A stretch of 19,667 nt of DNA from NCBI GenBank assembly GCA_041739675.1, contig JBGSNL010000043.1, positions 1 to 19,667 on the forward strand, written 5' to 3'. The position numbers were made by a program, and so were the translations under genes. Of this stretch, positions 2 to 18,607 are shown piece after piece. The notes under the pieces are model-generated. The model was not told the origin of the DNA, searched no databases, and saw nothing but the letters and a program-made list of their open reading frames with translations. How positions within the stretch are numbered: position 1 is the stretch's first letter; every line of letters starts with the position of its first letter. Source of the stretch: a bacterium. GTDB taxonomy: Bacteria > UBA10199 > 2-02-FULL-44-16 > DYJF01.

Positions 2-355
2 GCTCCGGCGGCAGCTTCTTCAGGGCAGGCGTCGGGCGGGATATCCTGGGGTCTGCCGGCGCTGGGTGGGGCAATTGCCTCCGGCATAACGTATTATGCT
101 GAAACCGCATCGGAATGGTTGTCCGGTTTCGAGTGGCACACGTCGACCGTGACGGGACTTCTCGAGACAGACGAAACCAGCGGCACCTATCGGGGCGACT
201 ACGCCTATGATCATGCATCTGTTCATGCCTCACAGAGGAACGCATTTCACGTCCGGGCGTCGGCAAACTTCATAAATCGTCCGGGAGCTCGATTTATGGG
301 CCGTGGAAGCACCGTTTTTGCCCCAGCCGCGCGACCTTTTGTCCCCGCACACTAA
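2..355 (+). CDS. 3' end of hypothetical protein (5'-truncated by window edge); array member 1 with C-terminal STVTGLLETDETSG motif and Arg-rich tail
   Basis: Frame 2 is open from base 2 to TAA at 353-355 (APAAASSGQASGGISWGLPALGGAIASGITYYAETASEWLSGFEWHTSTVTGLLETDETSG...). The 119..355 ORF call is only its distal part. Motif at 143-184 matches the three downstream genes. Confidence 0.8.
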   Translation, partial: APAAASSGQASGGISWGLPALGGAIASGITYYAETASEWLSGFEWHTSTVTGLLETDETSGTYRGDYAYDHASVHASQRNAFHVRASANFINRPGARFMGRGSTVFAPAARPFVPAH

Positions 356-367
356 CAAAAAAATGTG

Positions 368-395
368 AGCAACTTTTCCGGGCCACAGCCGATTA
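368..395 (+). promoter_or_regulatory. Putative alternative-sigma promoter (GCAACTTT-N11-GCCGATTA) upstream of array member 2
   Basis: AGCAACTTTTCCGGGCCACAGCCGATTA. The -10-like box is 7/8 identical to the sigma-28 consensus GCCGATAA. The same motif and spacing recur at 1806-1833. It ends 29 nt before the ATG. Confidence 0.55.
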
Positions 396-424
396 GAGGG
401 CGAAGTGTACCCTTTTGAGGTTTT

Positions 425-1798
425 ATGGTGGTTGGAGGTCCTCATTTCAGAATTTCCGAGGCACCTATCGCCGTGGACTGGCAGTTACCGGTCCGCGACC
501 ATTTGCCGCGTGAAATGCATATATACGACATCGACGCCTATTTTGCGGGCCTCGCGATGCAGTATGAGGACGTGTGCGGCGAATCCATGGGGCTCTTCAC
601 GGACATGGAACGGGAACTCAGAATCATGAGACCCGATGTCGGGAGGCGCTTTGCCGTCAGCGCCGGAGAGTATTTGAAAAACCACCCTATGCGTCCGGGA
701 GCCACGATGGCTGAAGTGGCAGGGGGTTATCGAAATCATCTTGGTGACGGCAGGATTTGTCCCATTGAGTCGCCCACGGCCATAAGGCACGTACTGGCCG
801 ACCAGATATGGAACGCGGGCGCGAACATGACGCTCAAGAAACAGAATGTGGATACGCTTCTTTCCGGGCGGGCGGCTCATCTCACTCCTTTCATAGCAGC
901 CGGCGTCAGATCGGGAAGGCTCAGTGAAGATGAAGGTGCGTACACGATTATCCTGAAGTTTCTCGCCCATACCAATCCGATCTATCGCAGTTTTGCTCTC
1001 AGATTGATAACTGAGGTCGACAAGGACACCCTGTCCGAAACCTATTTGAGTCTCTCCACACGGCTCAAGTTGTTTCTCTTTCTGTTCGAGCAAATGAGAT
1101 CGACAAAAGTTCCCCCGGAAATCAAAGGTGTCTGGTGGAACGCTGTGAGCCGCGTCATCGCGGTGGCCAACACGCGCAGTCTCAACGGTGTCCGCCTGTA
1201 CTATCTTGAAAAAGTGTTCGGCGAGATGCTCATCTTTCTCGATGCGGTGGAAGTGGGTAAAAAAGAGTTCAAAAAAAGTGCGCTGGGCGGACGCAGGAGG
1301 GGACCAAAAATTCTGCCGATCGAATTGCGCATGAAAGAGGTGCTGGAGAGGGATCTCGCGATAATTGAAAATCCTCATTATGCCGAGTTCATGGATTTTG
1401 CGGCCGAGTTCTTCCGCAGTGATATCGAGTCGGCGATCGAGTTATGCAATTCGCTGATCTCCAAAGAGGAGCAGAAAAAAAGAAGCACTCCGCCGAAAGG
1501 GTCTGGCGCCCCGCCCGCGCCTGTGACCCCTGAAACATTGACCGGCGGGACATCAGGCGGAGTTCCTCCGCCTGCGCAAAACACTTCAACGGTTACGGGG
1601 TTGATTGAAACCGGCGAAACGAGCGGCGGTCACGGTTATGTCGCAGACGAGAGCCTTGTTGAGACACGGAACGCGCAAAGGGCCGGCGTGCACCTTTTCA
1701 GACCGCAAATAAGATCAAGAATACCGGTCCAAAACCTGGGTGCGAGAGTATTTGTCGGGGCGCCTGCGGCCCGAATTCTCACGCCGGCAATGCCTTGA
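425..1798 (+). CDS. Hypothetical protein (457 aa), array member 2 with C-terminal STVTGLIETGETSG motif
   Basis: Long ORF with GAGG at 417-420 before ATG 425. No recognisable family or signal peptide. Pro-rich linker, motif at 1586-1627, 56-aa tail. Confidence 0.85.
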   Translation: MVVGGPHFRISEAPIAVDWQLPVRDHLPREMHIYDIDAYFAGLAMQYEDVCGESMGLFTDMERELRIMRPDVGRRFAVSAGEYLKNHPMRPGATMAEVAGGYRNHLGDGRICPIESPTAIRHVLADQIWNAGANMTLKKQNVDTLLSGRAAHLTPFIAAGVRSGRLSEDEGAYTIILKFLAHTNPIYRSFALRLITEVDKDTLSETYLSLSTRLKLFLFLFEQMRSTKVPPEIKGVWWNAVSRVIAVANTRSLNGVRLYYLEKVFGEMLIFLDAVEVGKKEFKKSALGGRRRGPKILPIELRMKEVLERDLAIIENPHYAEFMDFAAEFFRSDIESAIELCNSLISKEEQKKRSTPPKGSGAPPAPVTPETLTGGTSGGVPPPAQNTSTVTGLIETGETSGGHGYVADESLVETRNAQRAGVHLFRPQIRSRIPVQNLGARVFVGAPAARILTPAMP

Positions 1799-1805
1799 TT
1801 TTCTT

Positions 1806-1833
1806 AGCAACCTTTTTTGAAGGGCGGCGATAA
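1806..1833 (+). promoter_or_regulatory. Putative alternative-sigma promoter (GCAACCTT-N11-GGCGATAA) upstream of array member 3
   Basis: AGCAACCTTTTTTGAAGGGCGGCGATAA. Same boxes and spacing as 368-395. It ends 25 nt before ATG 1859. Confidence 0.55.
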
Positions 1834-1858
1834 GGGAACACATTCGTGGGAGGTTGGT

Positions 1859-3718
1859 ATGCCGGGAACAAATGGAAACCGTCCTATAGGCGCCTACTCG
1901 GGCGAGGACCCTCTTGTTACGATGATAGATGCGGTCAGACTCTTAGAAACGAAGAGGAACGCACCCGTCAAAGCGGAGGAGCTTCAAAGATGGAACGAGA
2001 TCTACATACGCGTTGAAAAGGAAAGACAGAGGTTTTTTGTCTTCAGATTCGCCTCAGTGCTTCATGACTGGGCGGAACAGATGAACGGATGCGATGCGGA
2101 TCCCGAAGCCTCGTTCGAAGAGTACGTCTCGAAACTTGAGAGTCGCGAGGATCTGCAAGGTGTTTACACGGCCATTGCCGGAGGTCTTGAAAAGGCAGCA
2201 GAGGGGAGGTCTCCTCACGAGGCCAGCGCGTCTCAATATCTGGCCCTTCAGGCGCGGAGGGTGGTGGCTACAGTCACCCTGAGCAACTACTTGACCGAGG
2301 ACAACGTCGCTGCGCTCTCCGCCATCGCGGAGATGTTGGGTTCGTCGTTTGCCCCCGTGCGCGAGACAGGCAGAAGACTTCTGGCCGTAATCCCCCGCAA
2401 CGAACAGGGTCTTCTTGAGATGCCTCTTTTCATGAGGTCTCTTGTCAAGGCGTTTCTCTTCAGTGGGCAGCTTTCTGCGGAACTCACGCTTCGCGATAGT
2501 TTTCAGGAGTGGAGAGAATATCTTCAATCGAAAACCAGCGAGACGATAAAACCGCCAGCGTTTGGTTCGGATGTTACGGAAGATTATACCGTTCAGATGC
2601 AGAGACAAATCGGCGAGTTCGCCGACAAAATAATCGCCGAGCTTGGTGGGCAGGCGGAGACTTCGATTGTGCAGTCGCTGGCAGTTCTTCTTGACAGGGG
2701 AGACGTGGTGCTTGCGAGCGATTTTATCAGGGTGTTCCACGACTTCACAGGGCGTGTCTTTCCGAAGAACGTCTTTGCGCTTCTTTTGATCTCCGCTGCT
2801 CGCGAGAACGTGAGCTTCGAGCGTGCGATGCTCACTGAAGACGCCGTGCGATTGGCGGTAAAGGCCTCCGCGATTTCAAACGGGCAGCTGAGAAACGGCA
2901 TCCTTCCTTTGCTCGTCGCATATATAAGTGGTTCCGACACCCACAAAGAAGTTGACGGGTGGCTTAGCCGCCTCATCGAACGCTTATCCGCACCGGCGCT
3001 TTTTCCCTCCGAGTATGAAGGGGCGCGAGAAGCGGGGAGGCCGTTCGACATCGGTGACGCCGATGCATCGGAATTCATGGATGCGTCCGACCTTGAACTT
3101 CTCGTTTACCATTTTCTCAACAACCTCGTGCATCATTGGAACGTCACAAACTCGTTGGCCGCCCGGCTGCTGAACGCCGCCGGAAGGGATATTCTCAACG
3201 GTGCACGAATCTGGTTGATCAGCAAAGCGCTGTATCAGGACATGCTGCAGGGTACGCGGCATTTCGATCAGGCGAAGTTGAACAGATATTTGGCCCCGCT
3301 TCTCGACGAGGATCCTCGGGTGCAGAATCTTATCGAATCCTCAAGGTTTAGGCGAAGCGGCCCCAACAACGAATTTTTTGAGTCGTATGACGCGGTAGTG
3401 CGCGCCCGCCAAAGTGGAGCCGTTGCGCCGGGCGGCGCCTCCGTTCAGGCTGCCGAAGAACCGGAAGAGCTGGCAGAGCTTCCCGTGCTGACCATGGAAG
3501 ACGATCCAAGCACGGTGAGGGGCCTTGCCGAGACCGGCGAATCAAGCGGAGCGGCTTCAAATAGTGCACCGGCTCGTGCCACGCGTCGGGCGAGGCGCAG
3601 CAACGTGCAACATCGCCAGACGACTCTGTTCGGGGCGGGCGCGGCAGTGCAAAGAGGCGCGCTGAGAACGTTCGGTGTTCCATTCGCACGTACGCCGGTC
3701 CGAACGCCGGGCCGTTAA
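1859..3718 (+). CDS. Hypothetical protein (619 aa), array member 3 with C-terminal STVRGLAETGESSG motif
   Basis: Start moved to ATG 1859 (MPGTNG...), which follows GGGAGG at 1848-1853. Motif at 3509-3550, 55-aa tail. Aligns by eye with member 4. Confidence 0.85.
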   Translation: MPGTNGNRPIGAYSGEDPLVTMIDAVRLLETKRNAPVKAEELQRWNEIYIRVEKERQRFFVFRFASVLHDWAEQMNGCDADPEASFEEYVSKLESREDLQGVYTAIAGGLEKAAEGRSPHEASASQYLALQARRVVATVTLSNYLTEDNVAALSAIAEMLGSSFAPVRETGRRLLAVIPRNEQGLLEMPLFMRSLVKAFLFSGQLSAELTLRDSFQEWREYLQSKTSETIKPPAFGSDVTEDYTVQMQRQIGEFADKIIAELGGQAETSIVQSLAVLLDRGDVVLASDFIRVFHDFTGRVFPKNVFALLLISAARENVSFERAMLTEDAVRLAVKASAISNGQLRNGILPLLVAYISGSDTHKEVDGWLSRLIERLSAPALFPSEYEGAREAGRPFDIGDADASEFMDASDLELLVYHFLNNLVHHWNVTNSLAARLLNAAGRDILNGARIWLISKALYQDMLQGTRHFDQAKLNRYLAPLLDEDPRVQNLIESSRFRRSGPNNEFFESYDAVVRARQSGAVAPGGASVQAAEEPEELAELPVLTMEDDPSTVRGLAETGESSGAASNSAPARATRRARRSNVQHRQTTLFGAGAAVQRGALRTFGVPFARTPVRTPGR

Positions 3719-3743
3719 TTTTATACTATCTAAGGAGGATAAT

Positions 3744-5780
3744 ATGTCGGGAGGAGAGAGTACGGTTCGGAGCGGCAGCAGAGAGGATATTCCACTTTAC
3801 GGACGTCGACAGAGATTCAGCCAGACGAGGGAGTTCAGAAAAATAGGAGGGGCGATGAGGGCCGCAGAGGAAGCGCTGAGGCCCACTATGCCGGCAGATG
3901 CATTTGTCCGTTTCGACGTGAATGATTATGCAAATCGTTTTCGTGATGTCACGGGTTTCACTCCGTTGGCTCGCCATCCGTCGGCTAACGCATTCGCCGA
4001 TTCCCTCTTCGGGTGGGCGAGTAATCGCCCCGGGGTAAGGGGAGCGACCTCGGCGGAGAGGAGCCGGAATGCGCTCGACGTTTACGAAACATACCTTCGT
4101 GTGCATGTTCCGCCGCGCCTTGTGGTAATTTTAAGAGAGAGACTCGCAGAGAGGTTCAACCGTTTTGCGGACAGTTTTCATCGCACGGCCACGGCGCTCA
4201 AGGATTCGGAAGATCCTGCCGATCAAAGAGAGGAGATACGTCTACTGACTCTCTCCGCTCAGAGCCGTGCCATAGTGCACGCCCTTTACAACAATGGAGT
4301 GGATTTCAGGAATCTTCAGTTGCTGGATCAAGTCATGAAGATGATGTTCGACGCGCGAACCGCCGACATCGGTGACGGTCTCATTTTGCTCGTCTCGAAA
4401 GACAATGAAGGCCGTCTTCGTTTTCCGGACCGCTTCGGTTCGCTCGTTAGTCTGGCCTTATCTCAGGGTGAGGCGATCACGGAGTGGAGATCCGAATTGG
4501 TGAACCACTTCGGTGACAATAGAGTTCAAAAATACATGTCGAGGTGGGGTGGGGAGAACGGTATTGCCGCCGGAGTCACTAACTGGTTTCTTATTCAGGG
4601 TGGAGATGTGATAAACATTTTTTCCCGGCTTATGCGTCAGGCACCTCGAGCGGTGAGAAGGTCGGCGGCGGTTCAGGCCGATATTTCGATCCTTGCTCTT
4701 CTCGAGATGGGCGAAGCGGGTCTTGCCCAAAAATTTCTTGCTACAATTGATACATATAACGAGATTTTGCAGACTGCAGGATACACGTCGGCCAAGTTGA
4801 GCCGTGCTCTTCATCTGCGCGATGTCGTCTACGGCCTGATGAATACGGCCGTCTCTCAGAGAGAGATGACCTATGAACGCCGGAACCTTCTTGAAAGATC
4901 TCTTGAATTGATGAAAAACGGCGGGACCCTTGTTTCCGGCTTTCGAGGCGAGGTGATCCCGCAAATGGTGATCGCGCTTTTGGGATACCGGCAGCTGGAT
5001 CCGGCCGTCGAGCGGCAGCTTGTGGGATTATTCGACGAGCTTTTGAACCCGTTTTCAGGTGTTATTCTGGAAATGTGGCAGACGGAAATAGAGACCGGAA
5101 CGTCCACAATGCGCACTCTTGTCGTAGGCGTTCTGAAAGATCTTCTGTATATGCAGCGTGAAATAGGCAAGGCCGCTCTGCCCGAAGATCAGCAACAATA
5201 CCTTTTCTCAAATTCGGTTGCAGCAAAAGTATTGAGCATAGCTCAGACGCATAAGCTGAATGCCGCCCGTATCATCATGATGATCAATGCGCTGGATGCG
5301 CACGAGCGGGGAAATCAAACGGAGGCCGAATACTACATGAAGCCGCTCCAGGATTCTTCGGCCGATATTCAGACGTGGATCGATAATTTATCAGGAGTGA
5401 CATTCGAGACGATCGATGTTGCTCTTGAGGAGAGATACTACAGCCTCACGGAAACGACGTTCGGCGGGACGACACCTGCAGCGTCAGGTTCATCGGCACC
5501 GCCGGCACCTGAGGCGCCGCCCGCTCCGGCTGCGCCGGCCGAGGGCGCAGAAAACGGTGCTTCATCCGTCACCGGATTGGCTGAGACAGGCGAGACAAGC
5601 GGCTCTTCAGTTGCAAGTGGGGCAAATCCTGCAGGACATGTGGCGCGGGCAGGCAGGTCCGGAAGTAGGCGCAGCGTTCATGCCGACGTGAATCGCCAGA
5701 TCATCCGGCCGCGGCGCGAATTGCAAACCTTCAGGCCGGTGGCTGTTGCGCGGCCGGTTGTGCCGACGAGGGTGCGCTAG
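3744..5780 (+). CDS. Hypothetical protein (678 aa), array member 4 with C-terminal SSVTGLAETGETSG motif
   Basis: Start moved to ATG 3744 (MSGGES...) behind a strong TAAGGAGG RBS at 3731-3738. Pro/Ala linker, motif at 5562-5603, 58-aa tail. Confidence 0.85.
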   Translation: MSGGESTVRSGSREDIPLYGRRQRFSQTREFRKIGGAMRAAEEALRPTMPADAFVRFDVNDYANRFRDVTGFTPLARHPSANAFADSLFGWASNRPGVRGATSAERSRNALDVYETYLRVHVPPRLVVILRERLAERFNRFADSFHRTATALKDSEDPADQREEIRLLTLSAQSRAIVHALYNNGVDFRNLQLLDQVMKMMFDARTADIGDGLILLVSKDNEGRLRFPDRFGSLVSLALSQGEAITEWRSELVNHFGDNRVQKYMSRWGGENGIAAGVTNWFLIQGGDVINIFSRLMRQAPRAVRRSAAVQADISILALLEMGEAGLAQKFLATIDTYNEILQTAGYTSAKLSRALHLRDVVYGLMNTAVSQREMTYERRNLLERSLELMKNGGTLVSGFRGEVIPQMVIALLGYRQLDPAVERQLVGLFDELLNPFSGVILEMWQTEIETGTSTMRTLVVGVLKDLLYMQREIGKAALPEDQQQYLFSNSVAAKVLSIAQTHKLNAARIIMMINALDAHERGNQTEAEYYMKPLQDSSADIQTWIDNLSGVTFETIDVALEERYYSLTETTFGGTTPAASGSSAPPAPEAPPAPAAPAEGAENGASSVTGLAETGETSGSSVASGANPAGHVARAGRSGSRRSVHADVNRQIIRPRRELQTFRPVAVARPVVPTRVR

Positions 5781-7204
5781 GAGAGAGCTTTCCGCAATCC
5801 GGATTGGTGGCTTTCTTCAAGAAATGTGATGAGTTCTTCGCCGCCCTTTGAAAGAAGGGCGTCGCATACGGAGAAGATGACGGGATCGGAGTGAACTCCG
5901 ATCCCTTTTGTTTTGCCCAGAATTTTCTTTAGCGTGCCCACCGCGTTCTTCAGATATTTCTCCCCGGCAAACGGTTCGTTTTCGAAAGGCGTCATAGGCT
6001 TTGGCACAAAAGGTGTTATCGTCAAAGTCACATTTGTTGCGCGAGAGCTTTTCGGCGCGCTCTTGTGAATTGCCGCCTGGACGCGTTTTGAAAGATCGGC
6101 GATCGCCATGATGTCTTCTTGAGTCTCTCCCGGCAGCCCGATCATAAAATAGAGGCGGAGTGACGTGATCCCATGTCTTGCCAGAGACTCTGCGGCGCAA
6201 AGGATGCGTTCGCCGGGAAATTTTTTTCCAATCGAGCTCCGCAAAACGTCGGTCGCCGCCTCCACGCCCAGACTTATCGATTTATGTCCGCTCCGTGCCA
6301 GAAGTGCCGCCACGTTGTCGTCGATCTCGTCCACGCAAAGAGATGACGGCGAAAACGTGGCCCCGCATTCGTGTATGGCGTTCGCGACATCGACAAAGGC
6401 CTTGTGGCTCAAAAGATCCGAACCGATGAGGCCGAAGCGGTTCCGATAAGGAAGACCGCATCTAACCATTTCAATCAGCGCATCGAAACTTCTCATCCGC
6501 AAGGGCTCGTAGAGGCGCGGCGTCACGCAGAATTTGCATTTCCTTGGGCAGCCGCGCCCGGTCTCTATGAGATGCATGTCGGAAAATTCGCTCTGCTTCG
6601 TATAAATAACGGTCTGGGTCTGCCACCTGTTGAGATCACGGACCACACGCCTCGTGCCAAGCACTCCTTCAAGTCTTTCACCTTTGGTTAAAAGCTGCGC
6701 GATTTCTCCTACCGCCTCCTCTCCCTCACCTATCACGAATGCGTCAAAGATCTTCGCGAGTGGGCGGTGGTTTATCGTCACGGCTGCGCCGCCCGCAATG
6801 AGAAGTGGGTGGTCTTTTTTTCGTTCACTTTTGAGATGGGGGATGGAGCATAGTTCGAGTATCGGCAAAATGTTTAGAAAATCGTTTTGAAACGAGATCG
6901 AGAACGCGATCGCGTCAAATTCGGAAAGAGGGCGCTGTGTTTCGAGGGAGAGTATGGGTGTTTTGGTGCGCTTGTGTTCCTCGAGAGTTTTAGGATCGGG
7001 AAGGAACGCGCGTTCGCAGACGATTTGCGGGTTGTCGTTGAAAAGTTTGTAGATCGTGTGGACCGCAAGATTGCTCATCCCCACATAATATGTGTTTGGA
7101 TAAACCAGCGCGACGGAGGTCTTGCCGCCCCAATTTTTGATGATAGGTCCGGTTTCTTCCGAGAGGACGTGCCGCTGGTTCTTGGCTGCCTGCCACATGC
7201 CCAT
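5777..7204 (-). CDS. Radical SAM protein with B12-binding-like N-terminal domain (uncharacterised COG1032/TIGR03960-like family)
   Basis: CxxxCxxC motif in ETGRGCPRKCKFC, N-terminal YPNTYYVGMSNL, plus IGEGEE, YFMIGLPGET and PFVPKPMTPF motifs typical of this family. Confidence 0.85.
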   Translation of the reverse strand: MGMWQAAKNQRHVLSEETGPIIKNWGGKTSVALVYPNTYYVGMSNLAVHTIYKLFNDNPQIVCERAFLPDPKTLEEHKRTKTPILSLETQRPLSEFDAIAFSISFQNDFLNILPILELCSIPHLKSERKKDHPLLIAGGAAVTINHRPLAKIFDAFVIGEGEEAVGEIAQLLTKGERLEGVLGTRRVVRDLNRWQTQTVIYTKQSEFSDMHLIETGRGCPRKCKFCVTPRLYEPLRMRSFDALIEMVRCGLPYRNRFGLIGSDLLSHKAFVDVANAIHECGATFSPSSLCVDEIDDNVAALLARSGHKSISLGVEAATDVLRSSIGKKFPGERILCAAESLARHGITSLRLYFMIGLPGETQEDIMAIADLSKRVQAAIHKSAPKSSRATNVTLTITPFVPKPMTPFENEPFAGEKYLKNAVGTLKKILGKTKGIGVHSDPVIFSVCDALLSKGGEELITFLEESHQSGLRKALS

Positions 7205-7274
7205 TGATACTAAACGTTTCTTGCATTAAAGGCCAATTTTATATTAGTGGCACCGAGGGGTACGGAGGGTTTCG

Positions 7275-7610
7275 ATGGATTTTCTTCCGGCGGTGCGGAA
7301 AAAATTGATGCGGAAAAGGACTCAGAAATTCCTGGAGGGTGGGACGAATTCGTCCGCTTTGGCCGTGCAATGTCTTGAGCTTTCAATCGAGAGTTTCATC
7401 GGCAAAAAACTGGAGCATTTCTTCGAGCGGCTGGGTTCGCATGACGCGCAAGGGCTCCACGAAACGGTGATGGCACAGGTGGAAAAGCCAATGATAGAAA
7501 AGGCGCTCGCATGGGCCAAGGGAAACCAGCTCAAGGCCGCGCGCGTTTTGGGGATGAGCCGGAACACTTTGCGCGCAAAGATGCGCGCCTTGAAAATTCA
7601 GACGAAGTGA
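7275..7610 (+). CDS. Stand-alone Fis-family helix-turn-helix protein
   Basis: VEKPMIEKALAWAKGNQLKAARVLGMSRNTLRAKM matches the Fis/NtrC-type HTH. GGAGG RBS upstream. No AAA+ or receiver domain. Confidence 0.85.
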   Translation: MDFLPAVRKKLMRKRTQKFLEGGTNSSALAVQCLELSIESFIGKKLEHFFERLGSHDAQGLHETVMAQVEKPMIEKALAWAKGNQLKAARVLGMSRNTLRAKMRALKIQTK

Positions 7611-7619
7611 GGAGGCGAT

Positions 7620-8261
7620 ATGGATCAGGCTCGCATCAGCGGTCTTTATGCAATCGCGGACATGAACTTCAACCCGTGCTCTTCGCTGCCGGAGCTCATT
7701 GGCAAATTCCTCATGGGAGGCTGCAAGATTGTGCAGCTTCGCATGAAATCCGCAAATGTCAGACCTTCGCTCTGGAACGACGAAGTTTTCGAGGCTGCAA
7801 AAGAAGTGATGGCCTTCAAGAAACATTTCGATTTCACGTTTATAATAAATGACTACGTCGACGTTGCGGCCGAGCTTAAGGCCGACGGCGTCCATGTCGG
7901 AAAAAACGACATGCCGGTCGAGAATGTCCGCAGCCGCGTGGGCAACCGGCTCCTGGTCGGCTATTCCTCCCACTCTCTTGAGGAGGCCGTGGCCGCAGAA
8001 AAATCCGGAGCCGACTACGTGGCGCTCGGCGCAATCTATCACACGAAGACGAAGGGGCCGGGCCATCCGATTGTGGGGTTGGAGACGCTCAGACAAGTGA
8101 CGCAAACTCTAAAGGTCCCCGTGGTCGCCATCGGCGGAATCAAGCGCGAAAATTACAAGGAAGTTTTGGACGCCGGCGCCTCCGCTGCCGCTATGATTAC
8201 CGCTTTAACTATGTCGAATGATATTGCCGGTGAAGCGCGCTGGTTTGCAGAGAACCGTTAA
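7620..8261 (+). CDS. thiE: Thiamine-phosphate synthase
   Basis: VQLRMK, FIIND, ADGVHVG, GADYVALGAIYHTKTK and PVVAIGGI motifs. GAGGAGG RBS. Confidence 0.95.
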   Translation: MDQARISGLYAIADMNFNPCSSLPELIGKFLMGGCKIVQLRMKSANVRPSLWNDEVFEAAKEVMAFKKHFDFTFIINDYVDVAAELKADGVHVGKNDMPVENVRSRVGNRLLVGYSSHSLEEAVAAEKSGADYVALGAIYHTKTKGPGHPIVGLETLRQVTQTLKVPVVAIGGIKRENYKEVLDAGASAAAMITALTMSNDIAGEARWFAENR

Positions 8262-9038
8262 ATGGAAAAGACAGTCCTCACTATTGCGGGTTCGGATCCG
8301 TCCGGCGGCGCCGGTGTCCAGGCGGATCTGCAGACGTTAGCGCATTTCGGCGTGACCGGCCTGTCGGCTATCACCGCGATCACGGCGCAAAACGCGGAGG
8401 CGGTTCTGGCGATCCATCCGACCCCGGCGGACGTTTTGACCCAACAGCTCTCCACCGCGTGCAAAGGCGTGAATCTCGATGCGATAAAGATAGGGATGGT
8501 GGCCACACAAGCCAACGTGAAGGCGCTCGTCTGGTTTTTGCATCACACGCCGTCGGATCAAATCGTGATAGATCCTGTTTTCCACTCGTCTTCCGGAACT
8601 CCGCTTCTCGAGACGAAAGCACTTGCCATTTTCAAACAGCAGCTTCTGCCTTTGGCCACGGTTATCACGCCCAACCTGCAGGAGGCCGGTGTGCTTGCGG
8701 GCATGCAGGTCGCCTCTCTCGATACGATGCGCCGTGCCGCAGAGACGATCCATCTTGAAACGATGAGATTTCGCGGAGACATCGAAAAACCCTTGGCCCT
8801 TCTGATCAAGGGCGGTCATCTTGAAGGGGACGCAGTGGACGTTCTTTATGACGGCGAAAAATATTTTTCCTTCCCCGCAAAAAGGATCGCCGGTCCGTCG
8901 CCGCGCGGTACGGGCTGCAGATTTTCATCGGCCATTGCGGCATGCCTGGCTTTGGGGGATGATTTGCAAACTTCAATCAGGAAGGCGAAAGAGTATCTTG
9001 CAAATTACATAGCGGGAACGAATAAATGGGCGAACTGA
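8262..9038 (+). CDS. thiD: Hydroxymethylpyrimidine/phosphomethylpyrimidine kinase
   Basis: VLTIAGSDPSGGAGVQADL, IKIGM, VIDPV, TPNLQEA, KGGH and GTGC motifs. Abuts thiE. Confidence 0.93.
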   Translation: MEKTVLTIAGSDPSGGAGVQADLQTLAHFGVTGLSAITAITAQNAEAVLAIHPTPADVLTQQLSTACKGVNLDAIKIGMVATQANVKALVWFLHHTPSDQIVIDPVFHSSSGTPLLETKALAIFKQQLLPLATVITPNLQEAGVLAGMQVASLDTMRRAAETIHLETMRFRGDIEKPLALLIKGGHLEGDAVDVLYDGEKYFSFPAKRIAGPSPRGTGCRFSSAIAACLALGDDLQTSIRKAKEYLANYIAGTNKWAN

Positions 9039-10732
9039 TTTTACGAGATGTTCTGGTCATCTTTCTGGTGGCGATACCGATTGTTCTCATCGCGCACCGG
9101 ATGAATTTGCCTTCCATTGTCGGTTTTCTTCTCACGGGAATCATCATAGGCCCTGAAGGGTTGGGGCTCATAAGCGACGCCGCCAGGATCGATATTTTGG
9201 CGGAAGTCGGAATCGCACTCCTTCTTTTTCACGTCGGTCTCGAATTCTCGGCGGGAAATTTAAGAGGGCTAAAAAAAGTTATCCTGGGAAGCGGCCTCAT
9301 CCAGCTCGTCGTCACCATTTGCGCGGGAATGGCGCTCGGTTTCGCTGCCGGCTGGCCTTTCACGCACGGCATTTTTTTCGGCTGCACCGCGGCGCTTTCA
9401 TCCACCGCAATTGCGCTCGCCTTCATGTCATACAAGAGATGGCTCGATTCGCCGGCGGGCAGGATATCGACAGGGATTCTCGTTTTGCAGGACCTTGCGG
9501 TCGTTCCGATGATTATCCTCATGCCTTTCATAGCGGCCGGCGCGGCGACATTCAGCGCGCGGACAGTTCTTCTCATACCGGTCTTAAAGATCGTCGCCGT
9601 TTTTGCGATTCTCTGGTTCGTCTTCAGGTTTATTTTGGGCTATCTCCTGCATCAGGTCGCGCACGTCGGGAGCAAGGAGCTCTTCATTATAGTTCTCGTC
9701 GGCATGGCGCTGGGCGTTGCGTGGTTCACGCAGCGGCTGGGCCTCTCTTTCGCGCTCGGCGCGTTTCTTTCCGGCCTCATGATCTCGGCTACGCCTTTCC
9801 GTTTTCACGCGCTCTCCGAGATGGGCCCGTTCCGGGCATGCGTGAGCGGCCTGTTCTTTGTCTCCATCGGGATGCTTATTTCTCCAACCTTCATCGCGGA
9901 AAATCTGGCACAGGTCGCGGCGCTTGTCGCCTTCGTCGTCATCGGAAAAACGGTAATAGCTGCGGGCTCCGTCTTGATCATGGGTTATCCTCTGGGCGTT
10001 GCGCTGACCGTGGGAATGCTTTTGGGACAGATGGGGGAGTTTTCGTTTTTGCTCACGCGCGTGGGATTTCGTGCGGGGATAATCGGCAGCGATCTCTACC
10101 AGCTCCTGATCGCCACGGCCGGCGTCACGATCGTCTTCTCGCCCATCATGATGGAGATCTCCGCGTTTGTAGGGCCGGCCCTCGGCCGCTTTTCGCCGCG
10201 GGGCTTGAGGCGCGCGGACGATCTCTTCGGTGTGCCGGGTGACGCAGCCCGCATGAAGGACCACGCGATCATCTGCGGGTTCGGGCCATTGGGAGAGACG
10301 ATCGGCCATCTGCTGAAAAAAAGCGGAATCTGCTACGTCGTCCTGGAGCTCAATCCGAAAACGGCCGAAAAGCTCAAGAAAGCGAAGTGCCCGGTCTACA
10401 TAGGGGATGGGGCCTCCGCGGAGCTTCTGTCCCATTCAGGAATTGAGAGCGCCAAACTTCTGGCGATTGCAGTTCCGGATTATGTCAATTCGCTTGCGAT
10501 CATAAGACAGGCGCGCCGATTGAATCCGCAGATCACGATCATCACGAGATCCAAATACCGCGACCACGTCGAAGACTTTTACGACGCCGGCGCCGATATA
10601 GTCGTATGCGAGGAGCTGGAGGCGGGTGTTGAAATGGGGCGGTACGTCCTTTTGGAGTTGGGCATCAAAGAGGAAGACGCTCGCCAGTTTGTCTCGGAAG
10701 TGCGCGCCTTCGGAAGTGCGGATTTCTTCTAA
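9026..10732 (+). CDS. CPA2-family cation:proton antiporter (Kef/YbaL-like) with C-terminal TrkA-N (KTN) domain
   Basis: Many hydrophobic segments, with GLEFS, LSSTA, ILVLQDL, LGAFLSG and GEFSF motifs. C-terminal Rossmann-like HAIICGFGPLG and YIGDG. Confidence 0.92.
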   Translation: MGELILRDVLVIFLVAIPIVLIAHRMNLPSIVGFLLTGIIIGPEGLGLISDAARIDILAEVGIALLLFHVGLEFSAGNLRGLKKVILGSGLIQLVVTICAGMALGFAAGWPFTHGIFFGCTAALSSTAIALAFMSYKRWLDSPAGRISTGILVLQDLAVVPMIILMPFIAAGAATFSARTVLLIPVLKIVAVFAILWFVFRFILGYLLHQVAHVGSKELFIIVLVGMALGVAWFTQRLGLSFALGAFLSGLMISATPFRFHALSEMGPFRACVSGLFFVSIGMLISPTFIAENLAQVAALVAFVVIGKTVIAAGSVLIMGYPLGVALTVGMLLGQMGEFSFLLTRVGFRAGIIGSDLYQLLIATAGVTIVFSPIMMEISAFVGPALGRFSPRGLRRADDLFGVPGDAARMKDHAIICGFGPLGETIGHLLKKSGICYVVLELNPKTAEKLKKAKCPVYIGDGASAELLSHSGIESAKLLAIAVPDYVNSLAIIRQARRLNPQITIITRSKYRDHVEDFYDAGADIVVCEELEAGVEMGRYVLLELGIKEEDARQFVSEVRAFGSADFF

Positions 10733-10832
10733 AAAGTCCCAAAAAATCACGCTTTACAACAATGTGTTCGCGGTGATATTCGGGCGCTCATCCAAGATGT
10801 TTTCAAACAGAAACTTTTTTAAGGAGGCGACT

Positions 10833-12089
10833 ATGCCTGAAGAGAAACTCAACCCGTTCAAGATTGCGCAGCAGCAGCTGGACGAGGCGGCAAAGATTCT
10901 GGGGCTCGATCCCGGAACGCACGCGGCCTTGAGGGAACCGATGCGCGAGCTCCACGTGTCGCTTCCGGTCCGTATGGACGACGGTACGGTGAAAGTCTTC
11001 AAGGGATTCCGCGTACAATATAACGATTCACGTGGCCCCACGAAGGGCGGTATACGCTTCCATCCGGAAGAGACGATCGACACGGTCCGCGCACTTGCGG
11101 CGTGGATGACGTGGAAGACGGCAGTGGTCGATATCCCGCTGGGCGGCGGCAAGGGCGGCATCATCTGCAATCCCAAAGAGATGAGCCCCAGCGAGATTGA
11201 AAGACTCTCGCGCCAGTACGTCCGCCAGGTCGGCAGGATCATCGGCCTCGAAAAGGACGTTCCGGCACCGGACGTCTACACCACTCCGCAGATCATGGCG
11301 TGGATGATGGACGAATACTATTGGCAGAAGGGTTACAACGAACCGGGAGTTATCACCGGCAAACCGCTTTCGCTCGGCGGCTCAAAGGGAAGAAACGACG
11401 CCACGGCGCGCGGCGGTGTTTATTGTGTGCGCGAAGCTGCAAAGAACCTTGGAATCAATCCTGCGAACACAACCTACGCGATTCAGGGTTTTGGAAATGC
11501 GGGCCAGTATGCTGCAACGCTCATGAACGAGATCCTGGGATCCAAGAAGCTTCTTGCAGTTTCCGATTCGAAGGGCGGAGTTTACAATCCTGAGGGAATC
11601 GATCCTGCAACGATCGTGAAATACAAGCTCGAGACCGGCGAAGTCAAAAATTTCCCGGGAACGAAGCCCATCACCAACGAAGAACTTTTGGAACTCAAGG
11701 TGGACATCCTCTTCCCGTCGGCGCTTGAGAACGTGATCACCGCGAAGAACGCGGGCAACATCAAGGCGAAGATCGTGGCAGAGCTCGCGAACGGCCCGAC
11801 AACCCCGGACGCGGACAATATTCTCTATAAGAACAACGTCTTCGTAATTCCCGATTTCCTGTGCAACGCGGGCGGCGTGACGGTCTCCTACTTCGAGATG
11901 GTGCAGAACAGCTACAACTTCTACTGGGAGCTGCCTGAAGTGCACGCGCGTCTGGATGAAAAGATGACAAAGGCCTTCACGGACGTTTACAAGATGCACA
12001 AGGATCGCAAGATCCACATGAGGTCCGCCGCGTACCTCGTCGCGGTCCAGAGAGTCGCCGAGGCGATGCGCTTCAGAGGCTGGGTATAG
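10833..12089 (+). CDS. gdhA: Glu/Leu/Phe/Val dehydrogenase, probable glutamate dehydrogenase (418 aa)
   Basis: Start at ATG 10833 after AAGGAGG. Motifs RGPTKGGIRFHP, GGGKGG, DVPAPDV, ITGKP, IQGFGNAG, ELANGPTT and NAGGVTVSYFE. Confidence 0.93.
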   Translation: MPEEKLNPFKIAQQQLDEAAKILGLDPGTHAALREPMRELHVSLPVRMDDGTVKVFKGFRVQYNDSRGPTKGGIRFHPEETIDTVRALAAWMTWKTAVVDIPLGGGKGGIICNPKEMSPSEIERLSRQYVRQVGRIIGLEKDVPAPDVYTTPQIMAWMMDEYYWQKGYNEPGVITGKPLSLGGSKGRNDATARGGVYCVREAAKNLGINPANTTYAIQGFGNAGQYAATLMNEILGSKKLLAVSDSKGGVYNPEGIDPATIVKYKLETGEVKNFPGTKPITNEELLELKVDILFPSALENVITAKNAGNIKAKIVAELANGPTTPDADNILYKNNVFVIPDFLCNAGGVTVSYFEMVQNSYNFYWELPEVHARLDEKMTKAFTDVYKMHKDRKIHMRSAAYLVAVQRVAEAMRFRGWV

Positions 12090-12093
12090 AAAG

Positions 12094-13851
12094 ATGGATG
12101 TCATAGGCGGCGGGCATATAGGCGGGAAGGCCAAGGGCTTCCTGCAGGCCAAGGATATATTGAGCGGGGGAAGGGCTCTCGAGCGCTTCCCCCGTGAAGT
12201 TCCTCTGCTGCGTTTTCCGGCCACGTTTTGCATCGGCACGCGCGTCTACGAGGATTTCATAAGCCGAAACAATCTCGAAGACGTCATCGCGCGCGCAAAA
12301 AATTCCATCGAAGACGAAGATTACGAACGCTTGAAGCAGCGCTTCTTCGCCGGCACTTTTCCGCAATCTGTCGTCAAAGAGTTGTCAAAACTTCTTGGTG
12401 AGATCACGTATCCCTTGGCCGTGAGATCGTCTTCCGTGCTGGAAGATCAGCCGGGCACCTCTTTTGCCGGAAAATACGACACGGTCTTCATAAGCAACCG
12501 CGGAACGTTAAACGAGCGCGTAGAGCAGCTTTTATCCGCCATCAAGGACGTCTTTGCCTCCACGTACAATCCGAGTGCGGTCAAGTATCGGGTGAAACAT
12601 CATCTGACGGAAGATGACGAGAAGATGGCGATCCTCCTTCAGGAGGCGATAGGTCTTGAGTTCGAAGGGTACTTCATGCCGCTCATGGCGGGCGTTGGAT
12701 TTTCCCAGAACGGTTACTGCTGGAACAAGGAAATCAGAAAAGAGGACGGGCTCGTGCGGCTGGTCTTCGGTCTCGGCACAAGGGCCGTGGGGCGCGGCTA
12801 CGCGAGACTCTTCTCGCCTAAAAAGCCCCTTGCGCGCCCGGAAGGCACGGATGTCCGCGAGATCGACAAGTTTTCGCAGGCGACGATCGACGCGCTGGAT
12901 CTCTCCGCCAACCGCATAGTCTCTTTTCACTTTTCAAAATTGGTGAGAAGCGGGCTCGATTCCTATCCGTGCGCCGAACGTCTCTTTTCGCTGCGCGACG
13001 CCAATCATCTTTACAGCCCTGTCACAAATATATGGAACCCGGAACACAAGCCGGTCCTCACGTTCGATCCGATCCTCACCAGCCCGTGGTGCGGTCTTTA
13101 TCTTCCCTCGGCCATGGATGCGGTCTTCAAAGCCCTTGAAGAGGGATTCGGTTTCCCGGTGGACGTCGAATTTGCCGTCCGCGTCGACGACAATCTCAAA
13201 GAGGCGCATCTTTATCTTGTTCAGGCCAGGCCCCTTTCCCAGCGTTCGTCGATGGCCCCCCATCCCATCCCGTATGACGTGGCCGAAGCCGACAAACTTT
13301 TTTCGGCAATAAAAAACATTCCTTCGGCCGTCATCCATAACATCGAATACATTGTCTATGTCGATTCGTTCCAGTACAACAAATGGCCGGTGGACGACAG
13401 ATATGAGGTGGCCAGAGTGGTGGGCAGGATCAACAGGCTCCTTGAGGGAAAGATTTTCATGCTCATGGGGCCGGGCCGGTGGGGATCGGCCAAAGTGGAG
13501 CTGGGCGTGCCTACAAAGTATTCGGAAATCTCAAATTGCGCGATTCTTGTGGAGATTGCGCGAAAGATGGAGCAGTACGTCCCCGAAGTCTCCTTCGGGA
13601 CGCATTTTTTTCAGGATCTGATCGAGGATTGCATCGTCTACATGCCGCTCTATCCGGACGAGCCCAATATCATCTTCAACGAGGAATTTTTGGCTAAACA
13701 TAACCTCTTCCGCGAGTTTTTCCCCGACGAATATCACGCCGCGTACGAGTCGCTCGTCCGCGTCATCCATATCCCGCAGGTGGCCAACGGCAGATTCGCT
13801 CAGGCCGTGCTCAACGGCGAAGCGGAACAGGCGCTGATTTATTTAAAATAA
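12094..13851 (+). CDS. PEP/pyruvate-binding (PPDK_N, ATP-grasp-like) domain protein with no evident phospho-His domain
   Basis: GGKAKG, AVRSSSVLED, SFAGKY, GLGTRAV, DVEFA and LVQARP motifs, then GPGRWGS and SFGTHFFQDL. No TSHAA(I)-type motif seen. Confidence 0.85.
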   Translation: MDVIGGGHIGGKAKGFLQAKDILSGGRALERFPREVPLLRFPATFCIGTRVYEDFISRNNLEDVIARAKNSIEDEDYERLKQRFFAGTFPQSVVKELSKLLGEITYPLAVRSSSVLEDQPGTSFAGKYDTVFISNRGTLNERVEQLLSAIKDVFASTYNPSAVKYRVKHHLTEDDEKMAILLQEAIGLEFEGYFMPLMAGVGFSQNGYCWNKEIRKEDGLVRLVFGLGTRAVGRGYARLFSPKKPLARPEGTDVREIDKFSQATIDALDLSANRIVSFHFSKLVRSGLDSYPCAERLFSLRDANHLYSPVTNIWNPEHKPVLTFDPILTSPWCGLYLPSAMDAVFKALEEGFGFPVDVEFAVRVDDNLKEAHLYLVQARPLSQRSSMAPHPIPYDVAEADKLFSAIKNIPSAVIHNIEYIVYVDSFQYNKWPVDDRYEVARVVGRINRLLEGKIFMLMGPGRWGSAKVELGVPTKYSEISNCAILVEIARKMEQYVPEVSFGTHFFQDLIEDCIVYMPLYPDEPNIIFNEEFLAKHNLFREFFPDEYHAAYESLVRVIHIPQVANGRFAQAVLNGEAEQALIYLK

Positions 13852-13868
13852 CCGTTTTAAGGGCCTTA

Positions 13869-13897
13869 TTGACAAGTTCCCGTTAAGACCATAGACG
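13869..13897 (+). promoter_or_regulatory. Possible sigma-70 promoter for hrcA (TTGACA-N17-TAGACG)
   Basis: Perfect TTGACA at 13869-13874 in the short intergenic gap. The -10 box is weak. Confidence 0.35.
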
Positions 13898-13908
13898 TAG
13901 GTCCCGAT

Positions 13909-14940
13909 ATGGCAGAACCCCTTTCAAAAAGAGATCAGGAGATCCTGGATATTCTCATATCCGACTATATCTCAACGGCCGCCCCGGTTGGTTCCAAGAC
14001 GATTGCCGGAAAACACAACGCCAATCTCTCTCCCGCGACGATAAGGAGCGTGATGGCCGATCTTGAGGAAAGGGGTCTTTTAAAGCAGCCCCATACGTCG
14101 GCGGGGCGCGTGCCCACTGCGGAGGGGCTCCGCTATTACGTCGATTGTCTTCTCCGTTGCCACGATCTTTCCAGAGATGAGCGCGAAAAGGTGAGAAGGT
14201 TCTACAATTCCAATGAACTCTCAGTCGATGAAGTGATCGGCCGGACCTCCAAACTTTTATCCACCATCTCCAACTATGTCGGCCTGATACAGACACCGGG
14301 CTGGGACAGAATCGTCTTCAAACAACTGGAATTCATCGCGTTATCGCGCGGCAGACTTTTGGGAATTTTTGTCTCGCAAGAGGGATTCGTCCAGAACAGG
14401 GTGATCGATGTCTCGGAAGAATATTCCTATCCCGATCTTGAAAGGATCAATCGTTATTGCAACAGCGCGTTTCTGGGCCTCACTCTGGAGGATGCGCGCG
14501 CCAAAATAGCAAGCGAGCTGGAGATCGCCAAAAGAGACTACGACCGACTGCTCGCCCGCGCTCTCGTTTTTTCGCAGGAGGTTTTTTCCGGCGTTCCGGA
14601 TTCGGATATCATAGTGGAGGGAGAAGAACACCTGATGGATTCGCCCGAATTTTCGGATACGGGAAGGCTCCGCGAACTCATCGAAGTGTTTGAAGAGAAA
14701 AAGGAGCTTTTGCATCTTCTCGACCGCTGCCGCGAGGTTGACGGCGTAAAAATTTTCATAGGCGCCGAGGCGGGCGGGGTTGCCGCTATGGAGCAGGTGA
14801 GCGTCATAACCGCGCCCTACAGGAAAGACGGCCACGTCATCGGGACCATCGGTGTAATAGGGCCCACCCGCATGGATTATTCGCGCGTCGTTCCGATCGT
14901 GGATTTCACCGCAAAAGTTTTGGAGGATATCTTAAATTGA
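13909..14940 (+). CDS. hrcA: Heat-inducible transcription repressor HrcA
   Basis: YISTAAPVGSK, LSPATIRSVMADLEERG, QPHTSAGRVPT, GLRYYVD and GVIGPTRMDY motifs. Confidence 0.97.
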   Translation: MAEPLSKRDQEILDILISDYISTAAPVGSKTIAGKHNANLSPATIRSVMADLEERGLLKQPHTSAGRVPTAEGLRYYVDCLLRCHDLSRDEREKVRRFYNSNELSVDEVIGRTSKLLSTISNYVGLIQTPGWDRIVFKQLEFIALSRGRLLGIFVSQEGFVQNRVIDVSEEYSYPDLERINRYCNSAFLGLTLEDARAKIASELEIAKRDYDRLLARALVFSQEVFSGVPDSDIIVEGEEHLMDSPEFSDTGRLRELIEVFEEKKELLHLLDRCREVDGVKIFIGAEAGGVAAMEQVSVITAPYRKDGHVIGTIGVIGPTRMDYSRVVPIVDFTAKVLEDILN

Positions 14941-15542
14941 ACATGAAAAAACCGACATCGAAGGTTGACGAGCTTCGGGATGCGCTGAAGGCGAAGAAAG
15001 ACGCGGAGGCGAAGGCCAGGTCCGAGGCCAGGGTTGAGGGCGAGGCCAAGGTTGAGGCCGAAGATCTTTCGGCTTCTATCAGGGCGGCCGAGCAGGAGGC
15101 GAAGCAGCACTACGACAAACTACTGCGTGTGATGGCCGAGTTTGAGAATTTCAAAAAACGCGTTTCGCGCGAGCATGAAGAAAAGTCAAAATACGCGAAT
15201 GAAAAGCTCATCGTCGAGATTCTTCCCGTGCTCGACGATTTTGACCGCCTGACCGATCACATCCCCGAAGATGCTCCGCAAGACGTGAAGGCAATCGCTG
15301 ACGGGGCCAATCTCATAAGAAGAACGCTCTTCAACGCTTTGGCAAAGTTCGGGGTCGGCGAGATCGATGCGCAGGGGAAAGAATTCGATCCCCAGTTGCA
15401 CGAAGCGGTTTCCTGCATCACGGACAACGAACACGGGGACAATCACATCATCGCCGTGCATCGCAAGGGTTATAAACTTGAAGACAGGGTTATAAGAGCG
15501 GCGCAGGTCGTGGTAACAAAGAAAGGTGAGTCCGATGCGTAA
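14937..15542 (+). CDS. grpE: Nucleotide exchange factor GrpE
   Basis: LRVMAEFENFKKR, ILPVLDDFDR, FDPQLHEA and KGYKLEDRVIRAAQVVV motifs. The start is TTG 14937 or ATG 14943. Confidence 0.96.
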   Translation: MNMKKPTSKVDELRDALKAKKDAEAKARSEARVEGEAKVEAEDLSASIRAAEQEAKQHYDKLLRVMAEFENFKKRVSREHEEKSKYANEKLIVEILPVLDDFDRLTDHIPEDAPQDVKAIADGANLIRRTLFNALAKFGVGEIDAQGKEFDPQLHEAVSCITDNEHGDNHIIAVHRKGYKLEDRVIRAAQVVVTKKGESDA

Positions 15543-17427: not shown

Positions 17428-17432
17428 AGGTC

Positions 17433-17522
17433 TTATCTTTTTTTCTTCTTCGTGGTCTTTTTCTTCTTCCTCTTCACGGTCTTTTTCTTTTTCTTCATGG
17501 GGCCGCACATTCCACAACTCAT
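17433..17522 (-). CDS. 29-aa Lys-rich small protein with CxxC (MSCGMCGPMKKKKKTVKRKKKKTTKKKKR)
   Basis: AAGGAGG RBS (17528-17534, minus strand) 5 nt before the ATG at 17522. TAA at 17433-17435. Fills an otherwise empty intergenic gap. Confidence 0.7.
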   Translation of the reverse strand: MSCGMCGPMKKKKKTVKRKKKKTTKKKKR

Positions 17523-17618
17523 AGTTGCCTCCTTGCCCGCTTGCCCGCCGACGTTTTGTGGCGGGCCGAAAGTTTGTCGTGGCGAGCTTTGCTTGCATAA
17601 TACTAAAAAGACATATAA

Positions 17619-18602: not shown

Positions 18603-18607
18603 ACAAA

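Follow-up and report, generated by a model that had tools for sequence, protein, structure and literature searches.

A portable motif-and-tail module at the C-termini of 43 proteins of one bacterial genome: a candidate second address for cargo of a secretin-less type III secretion system

What does it mean when four neighboring genes, whose products match no described family, all end in the same way? The question is raised by a 19,667-nt stretch of bacterial DNA (contig JBGSNL010000043.1; hereafter the window), at one end of which four tandem genes encode proteins that share a short motif close to the C-terminus. A preliminary description of this DNA had proposed that linker, motif and tail together form a portable recognition tag. 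Here we compare the genome from which the window comes (G000; 1.9 Mb, 94.6% complete) with that of a sister species (G001; 1.7 Mb, 83% complete) and with those of relatives (other G numbers); C numbers denote contigs of G000, and L numbers contigs of the relatives. We find that a module consisting of the motif and an Arg-rich tail of ~55 residues terminates 43 proteins, whose genes amount to 4.6% of G000, and that it is a portable tag is something we hold with great confidence.

The four genes all lie on the forward strand. Gene 1 is represented by its 3′ part (positions 2–355; 117 residues inside the window), gene 2 encodes a 457-residue protein with an orphan body (425–1798), gene 3 a protein of 619 residues counted from its ATG (1859–3718), and gene 4 a 678-residue protein with an orphan body that is predicted to be all-helical (3744–5780). 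The motif copies are STVTGLLETDETSG (143–184), STVTGLIETGETSG (1586–1627), STVRGLAETGESSG (3509–3550), which is identical in a related strain, and SSVTGLAETGETSG (5562–5603). Each is in frame where it had been reported, and the distances to the stop codon are indeed 56, 56, 55 and 58 residues, corresponding to tails at 185–352 (Arg-rich and acid-poor), 1628–1795, 3551–3715 and 5604–5777. The further claim that the codons differ synonymously also holds, since 40 of 67 same-residue codon pairs among the four copies differ; likewise the argument that selection acts on the peptide and not on a DNA repeat, as the four genes are 52–59% alike over their last 228 nt, which is the level of unrelated sequence in that alignment. 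A low-complexity linker had been described ahead of each motif; we see one ahead of copies 2 to 4 (rich in Pro, Gly and Thr before copy 2, and in Pro and Ala before copy 4), whereas that of gene 1 is less low-complexity.

The module extends far beyond the window. A hidden Markov model (HMM) whose only seeds were the four window copies converged on a set of 28, and a position-free two-block matrix built from 27 of these yielded 37 hits in G000 at a score of at least 16, with none at that score in reversed open reading frames (ORFs). In 36 of the 37 hits the match begins 60–85 residues from the C-terminus (in the remaining one, at 103 residues), which bears out the positional constraint that had been suggested from four copies. 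The 14-residue pattern that the preliminary description offered for scanning matched only the four window copies among 36,375 six-frame ORFs. The set of 43 comprises the matrix hits, three members found only by the HMM and two recognized through paralogy or tail composition; the 43 include one truncated at a contig start and one atypical member. Left out were a gene that breaks off within its motif where C54 ends, a protein on C6 whose motif lies 125 residues from its end, and a gene with the tail only (C86:8917).

The proteins that carry the module are otherwise diverse, as the notion of a portable tag on unrelated proteins had implied. Forty bodies fall into 30 BLASTP clusters, and the tagged genes form 21 clusters dispersed between housekeeping genes. 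Outside the window, 3 of 38 tagged proteins have a Pfam domain above cut-off (sacsin/HATPase, SNF2 helicase and SpoT-like HD) and one more has a weaker B12-binding hit; the rest of the 38 are orphans. Within a block on C36 and C37, modules that are 75–91% identical in DNA are attached to bodies at background identity, and therefore the module has been shuffled between genes. The tagged genes of this block occupy some 20 kb and separate a Ser/Thr kinase gene from sctU, between which they have been inserted.

The module has a defined anatomy, with the consensus [ST]V[TAS]G[LIT]-x-E[TV]SG followed by the tail. In particular, [ST]-V-[TAS]-G-[LIT] (the V and G being required by the parse) comes after a variable linker and is succeeded by a spacer that varies over a five-residue range, an anchor Glu that is usually succeeded by [TV]-S-G, and then the tail; the anchor Glu lies 54–68 residues from the C-terminus (median 60, n = 40). 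Over the last 45 residues Arg makes up 16.7% of the tagged proteins, and Lys, Asp and Glu 0.3% each, as compared with 6.1, 7.5, 5.2 and 7.0% for Arg, Lys, Asp and Glu in 1164 other genes; the net charge of this region is +4 to +12 in 42 tagged proteins, against a mean of +0.6. Scored for tail composition alone, the 43 tagged proteins reach 5–37 (leave-one-out), and only 5 of 1163 others reach at least 5. None of the tagged proteins has a hydrophobic segment in its last 75 residues (maximum KD19 1.23), and the module contains no transmembrane segment. An amphipathic helix in the tail does not rise above shuffled sequences (z = 1.0 and 0.1), an alternating β pattern there is not supported, and the arrest motif RAPP/RAGP occurs in 0 of 43 tails. 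AlphaFold gives the module a predicted template modeling score (pTM) of 0.14, and the module is predicted to be unfolded. The Cys content of the tagged proteins is 0.2%. These findings demonstrate that the motif is conserved in sequence and the tail only in length and composition. They also go beyond the preliminary description in that the tail is itself under selection for composition, in the reading frame only, and can occur without the motif.

Might the motif nevertheless belong to the folded domain of one paralogous family, or be a by-product of a DNA repeat? The products of genes 3 and 4 are distant paralogues (21% identity, BLASTP E = 8e-6), some modules are 75–91% identical in DNA, as in the C36/C37 block, and one related strain has no silent substitution in the gene 3 motif. 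BLASTP relates gene 2 to neither gene 3 nor gene 4. This reading is largely refuted by the 30 clusters of unrelated bodies, the 40 of 67 codon differences and a composition bias that is confined to one frame, to which the pTM of 0.14 and a median DNA identity between modules of 52% over 820 pairs may be added; we regard it as very remote. The preliminary description had named a single paralogous family with a folded domain, a match to a described domain and a lack of positional constraint as signs against a tag, and none of the three was found. Contigs of related strains from two other studies cover the window cluster and reveal how unequally linker, motif and tail are constrained; no RNA dataset was listed among the carriers. 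In one strain the linker of gene 3 (3411–3508) cannot be aligned, and the alignment restarts at 3509, the first base of the motif; on that contig 17 of 17 substitutions fall after the motif, and the tail has nine changed and three silent codons, none of which brings an Asp, Glu or Lys into its last 45 residues. The lack of silent changes in this one motif could also mark a recombination edge. Gene 2 of related strains contains a diverged stretch after which the alignment restarts at 1586 or 1605, and in gene 4, where the linker is 29 codons shorter in the related strains, it restarts at 5560.

In the sister species, of which about 0.48 Mb of 1.7 Mb was read directly, a diverged motif of the form V-x-[VI]-x-G-L-[LM]-x-S-G-E-A-P is present on 22 of 27 proteins with acid-free tails, a selection that is circular in that the 27 were chosen by eye with the tail in view. 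The anchor lies 44–58 residues from the C-terminus (median 49, n = 22), about 11 residues closer than in G000. When the G000-trained matrix is applied to G001, which is a less circular check, its best three hits lie 58–79 residues from the C-termini of proteins with acid-free tails, although only 8 of 36 hits scoring at least 9 fall in that C-terminal zone, where 10% are expected. All the G001 homologues of tagged genes that were listed carry acid-free tails; the tails of homologous pairs are mostly no more alike than random ones (rank 1 in 2 of 18). Tagged proteins are 22–59% identical between the two species, as against mostly 65–87% for most flanking genes, which evolve more slowly. The motif dialect assigns the species correctly in 40 of 40 and 20 of 22 cases. 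The signal thus drifts in both sequence and length between two species, which points to co-evolution with a reader. The orthologue in G001 of the tagged SNF2 protein carries the tail, and SNF2 homologues in G004 and G010 do not. The G001 orthologue (L146:180-6398) has two tandem motif copies ahead of its tail.

How widely the tag occurs is a matter on which the whole-module HMMs say little. The HMM of G000 gives 42 matches in G000 and none in 40 relatives, and that of G001 gives 23 in G001 and none in G000; such models overfit the tails, and their blanks in other genomes are therefore weak. No tagged-type protein was seen in the samples read of G002 (639 kb), G005 (235 kb), G007 (200 kb) and G004 (64 kb). 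A search of 5.8 billion proteins returned only seven, all attributable to the same species, which is weak evidence because no more than 8000 candidates were scored, and an exact degenerate DNA pattern matched three loci in a genome collection and four in metagenomes, none of them a tagged gene (one of the metagenome matches runs into a short unrelated frame). From the sequences surveyed, the tag appears in one genus only; distant occurrences outside the class are possible. As first surmised, the motif belongs to no described domain, the module having no match in Pfam, NCBIfam or PDB sequences, and none of the four window proteins has a Pfam or NCBIfam match above cut-off. We found no published description of the tag in open-access full text, and the tag is likely an undescribed form of bipartite C-terminal cargo signal.

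Other shared protein ends occur in these genomes. Two adjacent orphans of G002 (L206:7974-9458 and 11714-13123) share the end tag NIVTDPQxSxW after a Pro/Arg-rich linker, and two large untagged orphans of G000 that belong to the promoter regulon described below (C20:10249 and C25:17610) have the common C-terminal end SLFGIF..ET...LELL.K...E.

The earlier proposal left the kind of tag open among a chaperone or translocon site, a protease site and a modification site; the portable tag stands, and which kind it is can be argued only indirectly. Sortase signals (LPXTG/LAXTG) and other tripartite C-terminal sorting signals likewise combine a short motif that contains Gly, close to the C-terminus, with basic residues after it. 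Sub-sequences of the motif, LAETG and LPSGE, resemble sortase motifs, and ETSGG double-glycine sites. Accordingly, the tagged proteins could remain in the cytoplasm, with the motif serving as a site for a protease, a transpeptidase or a modifying enzyme, or with the tail marking them for degradation, and it is compatible with this that the tails end in hydrophobic or Arg/Pro residues and that the motif is rich in Ser and Thr in a genome that has Ser/Thr kinases and FHA proteins. However, the tail is ~55 residues long, and in contrast to sortase substrates the tagged proteins have neither a signal peptide nor a transmembrane helix; no sortase was found in G000, nor a PCAT (C39-ABC transporter), there being only a partial, stand-alone C39 hit. 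Moreover, the spacer varies over five residues, no Ser or Thr of the motif is kept in both species, the G001 version lacks Gly-Gly, and neither a peptidase gene nor a dedicated reader gene lies beside the tagged clusters. We consider processing or modification of this sort unlikely.

Which secretion machinery might then handle tagged proteins? G000 encodes a non-flagellar type III secretion system (T3SS), with SctV, SctR and SctN above NCBIfam cut-offs and further genes for U, T, L, Q-like, J and P-like components, scattered over C5:16261-20291, C87, C31:10248-13633 and C37:10355-11434. The flagellar rod family (Flg_bb_rod), the only flagellar family tested, is absent. There is no dedicated secretin SctC in G000, its only two secretins being in type II secretion system (T2SS) and PilMNOPQ-like contexts. 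The gene ahead of sctJ resembles Myxococcota clusters, some of which have a needle family on 11% of members, a lead only; together with the gene content, this resemblance would suggest a deltaproteobacterial organism, Bdellovibrio- or Myxococcota-like. Co-occurrence with a type IV (T4SS), type III or type VI secretion system (T6SS) or an extracellular contractile injection system (eCIS) had been put forward as informative. Neither a T4SS nor a T6SS nor an eCIS was found: in G000 we detected no VirB4, TraG-D_C or VirB11/TadA-type ATPase, no TssC and no T6SS/eCIS sheath, and P-loop TraG was found in none of four genomes and T4SS-DNA_transf in none of two. Nor does G000 have an HlyD of a type I secretion system (T1SS) above cut-off, and the tagged proteins have no RTX hit. 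A cluster of acidic proteins at C77:14009-19462, one of them with RTX repeats, is conserved in G002; no T1SS adaptor above cut-off was found for it.

In layout the module is closest to the bipartite signal of the Bartonella VirB/VirD4 T4SS, in which, in the part of the source drawn on here, a conserved element (BID) followed by a cationic C-terminal tail is found on unrelated catalytic domains (PMC6509941). The positive charge of the tails is as expected of T4SS substrates, yet the tests for T4SS machinery fail, no VirB4 or coupling protein having been found in the genus. The same text describes BID as a folded domain of ~100 residues (PMC6509941). Here the element is a motif of ~14 residues, and the module that holds it is predicted to be unfolded and has a tail whose length hardly varies; the tagged proteins contain no BID domain, as judged by the lack of a Pfam match and the pTM of 0.14. 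One could suppose that export starts C-terminus first, with the module as its primary signal, through some machine different from the T3SS, such as an unrecognized translocase, a T4SS whose genes are missing from the assembly, or the T2SS or pilus, on which the cargo would piggy-back. The sharp separation of tagged from other proteins by the tail alone would fit this, and T2SS and type IV pilus genes are present; however, T4SS, T1SS, T6SS and sheath components were not found, and G000 and G001 are 94.6 and 83% complete. We give this supposition little weight.

The secretin-less T3SS is the only export machine independent of Sec that was found, and a link to it is suggested by the promoters of the tagged genes. 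Their upstream regions yielded the pattern GCAAC-N-CCGATA, and a promoter matrix trained on nine sites not assigned to tagged genes detects, at 20 bits or more, 58 sites in G000 and none in the reversed genome. The sites take the form GCAACTTT-N11/12-GCCGATAAT, with a GCCGATAA-type −10 box at promoter distance, and resemble σ28-type promoters. Sites of at least 15 bits precede 16 of 39 tagged genes as against 43 of 1166 other genes (p = 2e-12), and 10 of 33 tagged genes when the paralogous C36/C37 block is removed (p = 5e-7). Window genes 2 and 3 are among them: a predicted site GCAACTTT...GCCGATTAG of 23.7 bits lies upstream of gene 2 (367–396, forward strand), and a weaker predicted site of 16.2 bits upstream of gene 3 (1805–1834, forward strand). 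Gene 3 most likely starts at the ATG at 1859, because the TTG at 1817 falls within the latter site. In G001 a site is found before 7 of 25 tailed genes. The canonical TAAA/TTAAG −35 box precedes 0 of 39 tagged genes, the upstream box being GCAACTTT instead, and patterns for σ54 and σ70 show no clear enrichment before them, one test being at chance level. Strong sites number 10, 18, 3 and 8 in the samples of G001, G002, G005 and G007. The needle-like gene of the T3SS is preceded by a site of 30.5 bits, and a gene for a FliA/WhiG-like σ factor, split over C5 and C87 so that each half scores below the full-length cut-off, is situated in the T3SS operon. That the same site stands before the tagged genes and the needle-like gene, with the σ gene in the T3SS operon, would link the tagged proteins to the T3SS. 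The regulon shares its −10 box with that of FliA in the attack phase of Bdellovibrio (TTAAG-N16-CCGATA), where, according to the sections of the source used here, a CCGATA −10 box precedes many genes for uncharacterized and surface proteins (PMC3627812); it differs in its upstream box GCAACTTT, in that the flagellar rod gene was not found, and in that the σ gene lies in a non-flagellar T3SS operon.

The N-termini of the tagged proteins point in the same direction, and their low Cys content, scattered gene positions and fast evolution are also cargo-like traits. As the preliminary description had noted for the complete window proteins, there is no evident Sec or Tat signal, 38 of 39 complete tagged proteins being without a hydrophobic N-terminal stretch (the exception is a mis-called start). 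Instead, these N-termini contain 9.0% Pro, 9.5% Ser, 10.5% Gly and 1.7% Lys, as compared with 4.0, 6.2, 7.6 and 7.3% elsewhere, which fits a type III signal, although composition of this kind is not diagnostic. A start of the form M-x(1,2)-G-[GA] (MLSGA, MQSGG, MFSGG), found 11 times among 39 tagged genes and 11 times among 538 others, is common to tagged genes and untagged orphans, several of the latter in the same regulon, and is a candidate type III gate signal. Twenty-eight untagged genes of the σ28-type regulon without hydrophobic N-termini have a Pro/Ser/Gly-rich start like that of the tagged ones and no tail; the C-terminal module therefore looks more like a second address than a primary secretion signal.

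Taken together, we put at roughly one in two the probability that the tagged proteins are one cargo class of the secretin-less T3SS and that the module is their second address; that it serves export or delivery in some form, counting in the accounts of another export machine and of a leader acting after export, is, by contrast, likely. Both the export and the reader protein are things that we infer. The tagged genes and the T3SS would be turned on together during a phase of contact or attack, and the disordered Pro/Ser/Gly-rich N-terminus would act as an ordinary signal for the type III gate. A chaperone or adaptor common to many cargo proteins would dock on the short, β-prone motif (hydrophobic-x-Gly-hydrophobic...Glu). 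The cationic tail, fixed in length and devoid of Asp, Glu and Lys, would be a thread for hand-over, for example through the outer membrane or on into a target cell; for this step the T3SS here has no secretin. The type III effector Tir, with its C-terminal site for the chaperone CesT, sets a precedent (PMC6114900), a short β-prone chaperone dock near the C-terminus likewise existing there besides the N-terminal signal. The cases differ in that there one effector is concerned and here 43 proteins, with a ruler-like distance to the end and a tail selected for composition; the two were not shown to be alike in sequence, and G000 yielded no CesT-type chaperone.

Several observations weigh against assigning the tagged proteins to the T3SS. 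SctV is found in 91 of 93 genomes of the class and the tag in one genus, and co-occurrence of tag and T3SS is therefore uninformative. The regulon is broad: the 57 genes with sites of at least 18 bits include 13 tagged ones, 16 with hydrophobic N-termini, and smc. Since FliA is also described, in the text cited, as a global attack-phase regulator in Bdellovibrio (PMC3627812), co-regulation need not mean co-export. A site of its own of at least 15 bits is absent at 23 of 39 tagged genes, some of them downstream in clusters. The kinase gene and sctU stand back to back in G001, G004 and G005, and the inserted block of tagged genes adjoins sctU only in G000. Five of the 27 tailed G001 proteins lack the motif, and the needle-like and SctP-like proteins lack the tail. 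A class I chaperone (PF05932) gave no hit, but the control was silent as well. Established type III signals and most chaperone-binding domains are N-terminal (PMC13466201), and Myxo-type systems, it has been argued, may be incapable of secretion to the cell exterior (PMC3459982).

Could the tail instead act after export, as a leader for uptake or addressing within the target (prey cytoplasm or a eukaryotic organelle), pulled in by the membrane potential as a C-terminal counterpart of a mitochondrial presequence? Mitochondrial presequences are Arg-rich, acid-free and free in sequence, and the tails have just this Arg-rich, acid-free composition with free sequence; bodies with enzymes of nucleic-acid or nucleotide metabolism (SNF2, HD) would suit such a destination, as would a Met-Gly start, seen in 9 of 39 tagged proteins as against 31 of 538 others. 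However, there is no amphipathic-helix signal over shuffles, and the species-specific dialect of the motif fits a reader in the same genome at least as well, which makes such a leader improbable.

To return to a cargo class of the T3SS, the closest relatives among described machines are the "needleless" T3SS* of Myxococcus and the Myxo-type non-flagellar T3SS, which, in the portions of the reports cited, possess an export apparatus and sorting platform and no dedicated secretin (PMC3459982, PMC12075869, PMC12428579). The system of G000 differs from these in having no Tad/Kil-type ATPase, a needle-like gene, scattered genes, a FliA-like σ gene within its operon and a large class of candidate cargo that bears a common tag. 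In the same portions, effectors of Myxo-type systems are spoken of as potential or hypothesized, and the cargo and outer-membrane passage of these secretin-less systems are an open question (PMC3459982, PMC12075869, PMC12428579). A more elaborate two-step route, which we advance tentatively and hold to be less probable than not by some distance, would have the T3SS carry the cargo across the inner membrane, after which a species-specific adaptor would read the motif, measure the tail and pass the cargo to the T2SS, the pilus or another pore into prey or host. If that were so, a Myxo-type T3SS would for the first time have a defined set of effectors, namely these 43 proteins, and their tag would be an address that can be transferred. 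A secretin-less T3SS is near-universal in this uncultured class of mostly small-genome bacteria, and the tag yields a sharply bounded list of candidate cargo, a promoter and, in its 70 residues, an element suited to reporter fusions.

The four window genes themselves form an insertion. The missing 5′ part of gene 1 is probably at the end of contig C21, as judged from a 9-bp in-frame overlap and from synteny in G001. On the other side the cluster is bounded by a radical SAM housekeeping gene on the reverse strand (5777–7204), which lies outside the system. In G001, G004 and G005 the genes of the C21 housekeeping block follow this radical SAM gene within a few kb, and the four tagged genes are therefore an insertion between the two. 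The product of gene 4 has no homologue in a protein search or in Atlas; its predicted structure (predicted local distance difference test score 62, pTM 0.44) is all-helical, and the model has no match in the PDB at E ≤ 0.001. The position of the window cluster is occupied in G001 by a gene for a large phosphomannomutase-domain protein without a tail (L073:3870-5642), and another large G001 protein, with glycosyltransferase and nucleotidyl transferase domains, has no tail either (L072:4315-9333); the domains of both are those of sugar-nucleotide enzymes. The remainder of the window (5777–19597) is ordinary, with genes for the radical SAM protein, Fis, thiE, thiD, a K+/H+ antiporter and a Glu/Leu/Phe/Val dehydrogenase, as well as a PPDK-like gene, hrcA, grpE, a TPR/periplasmic-binding lipoprotein, a thiL-like gene and a CNNM/CBS gene.

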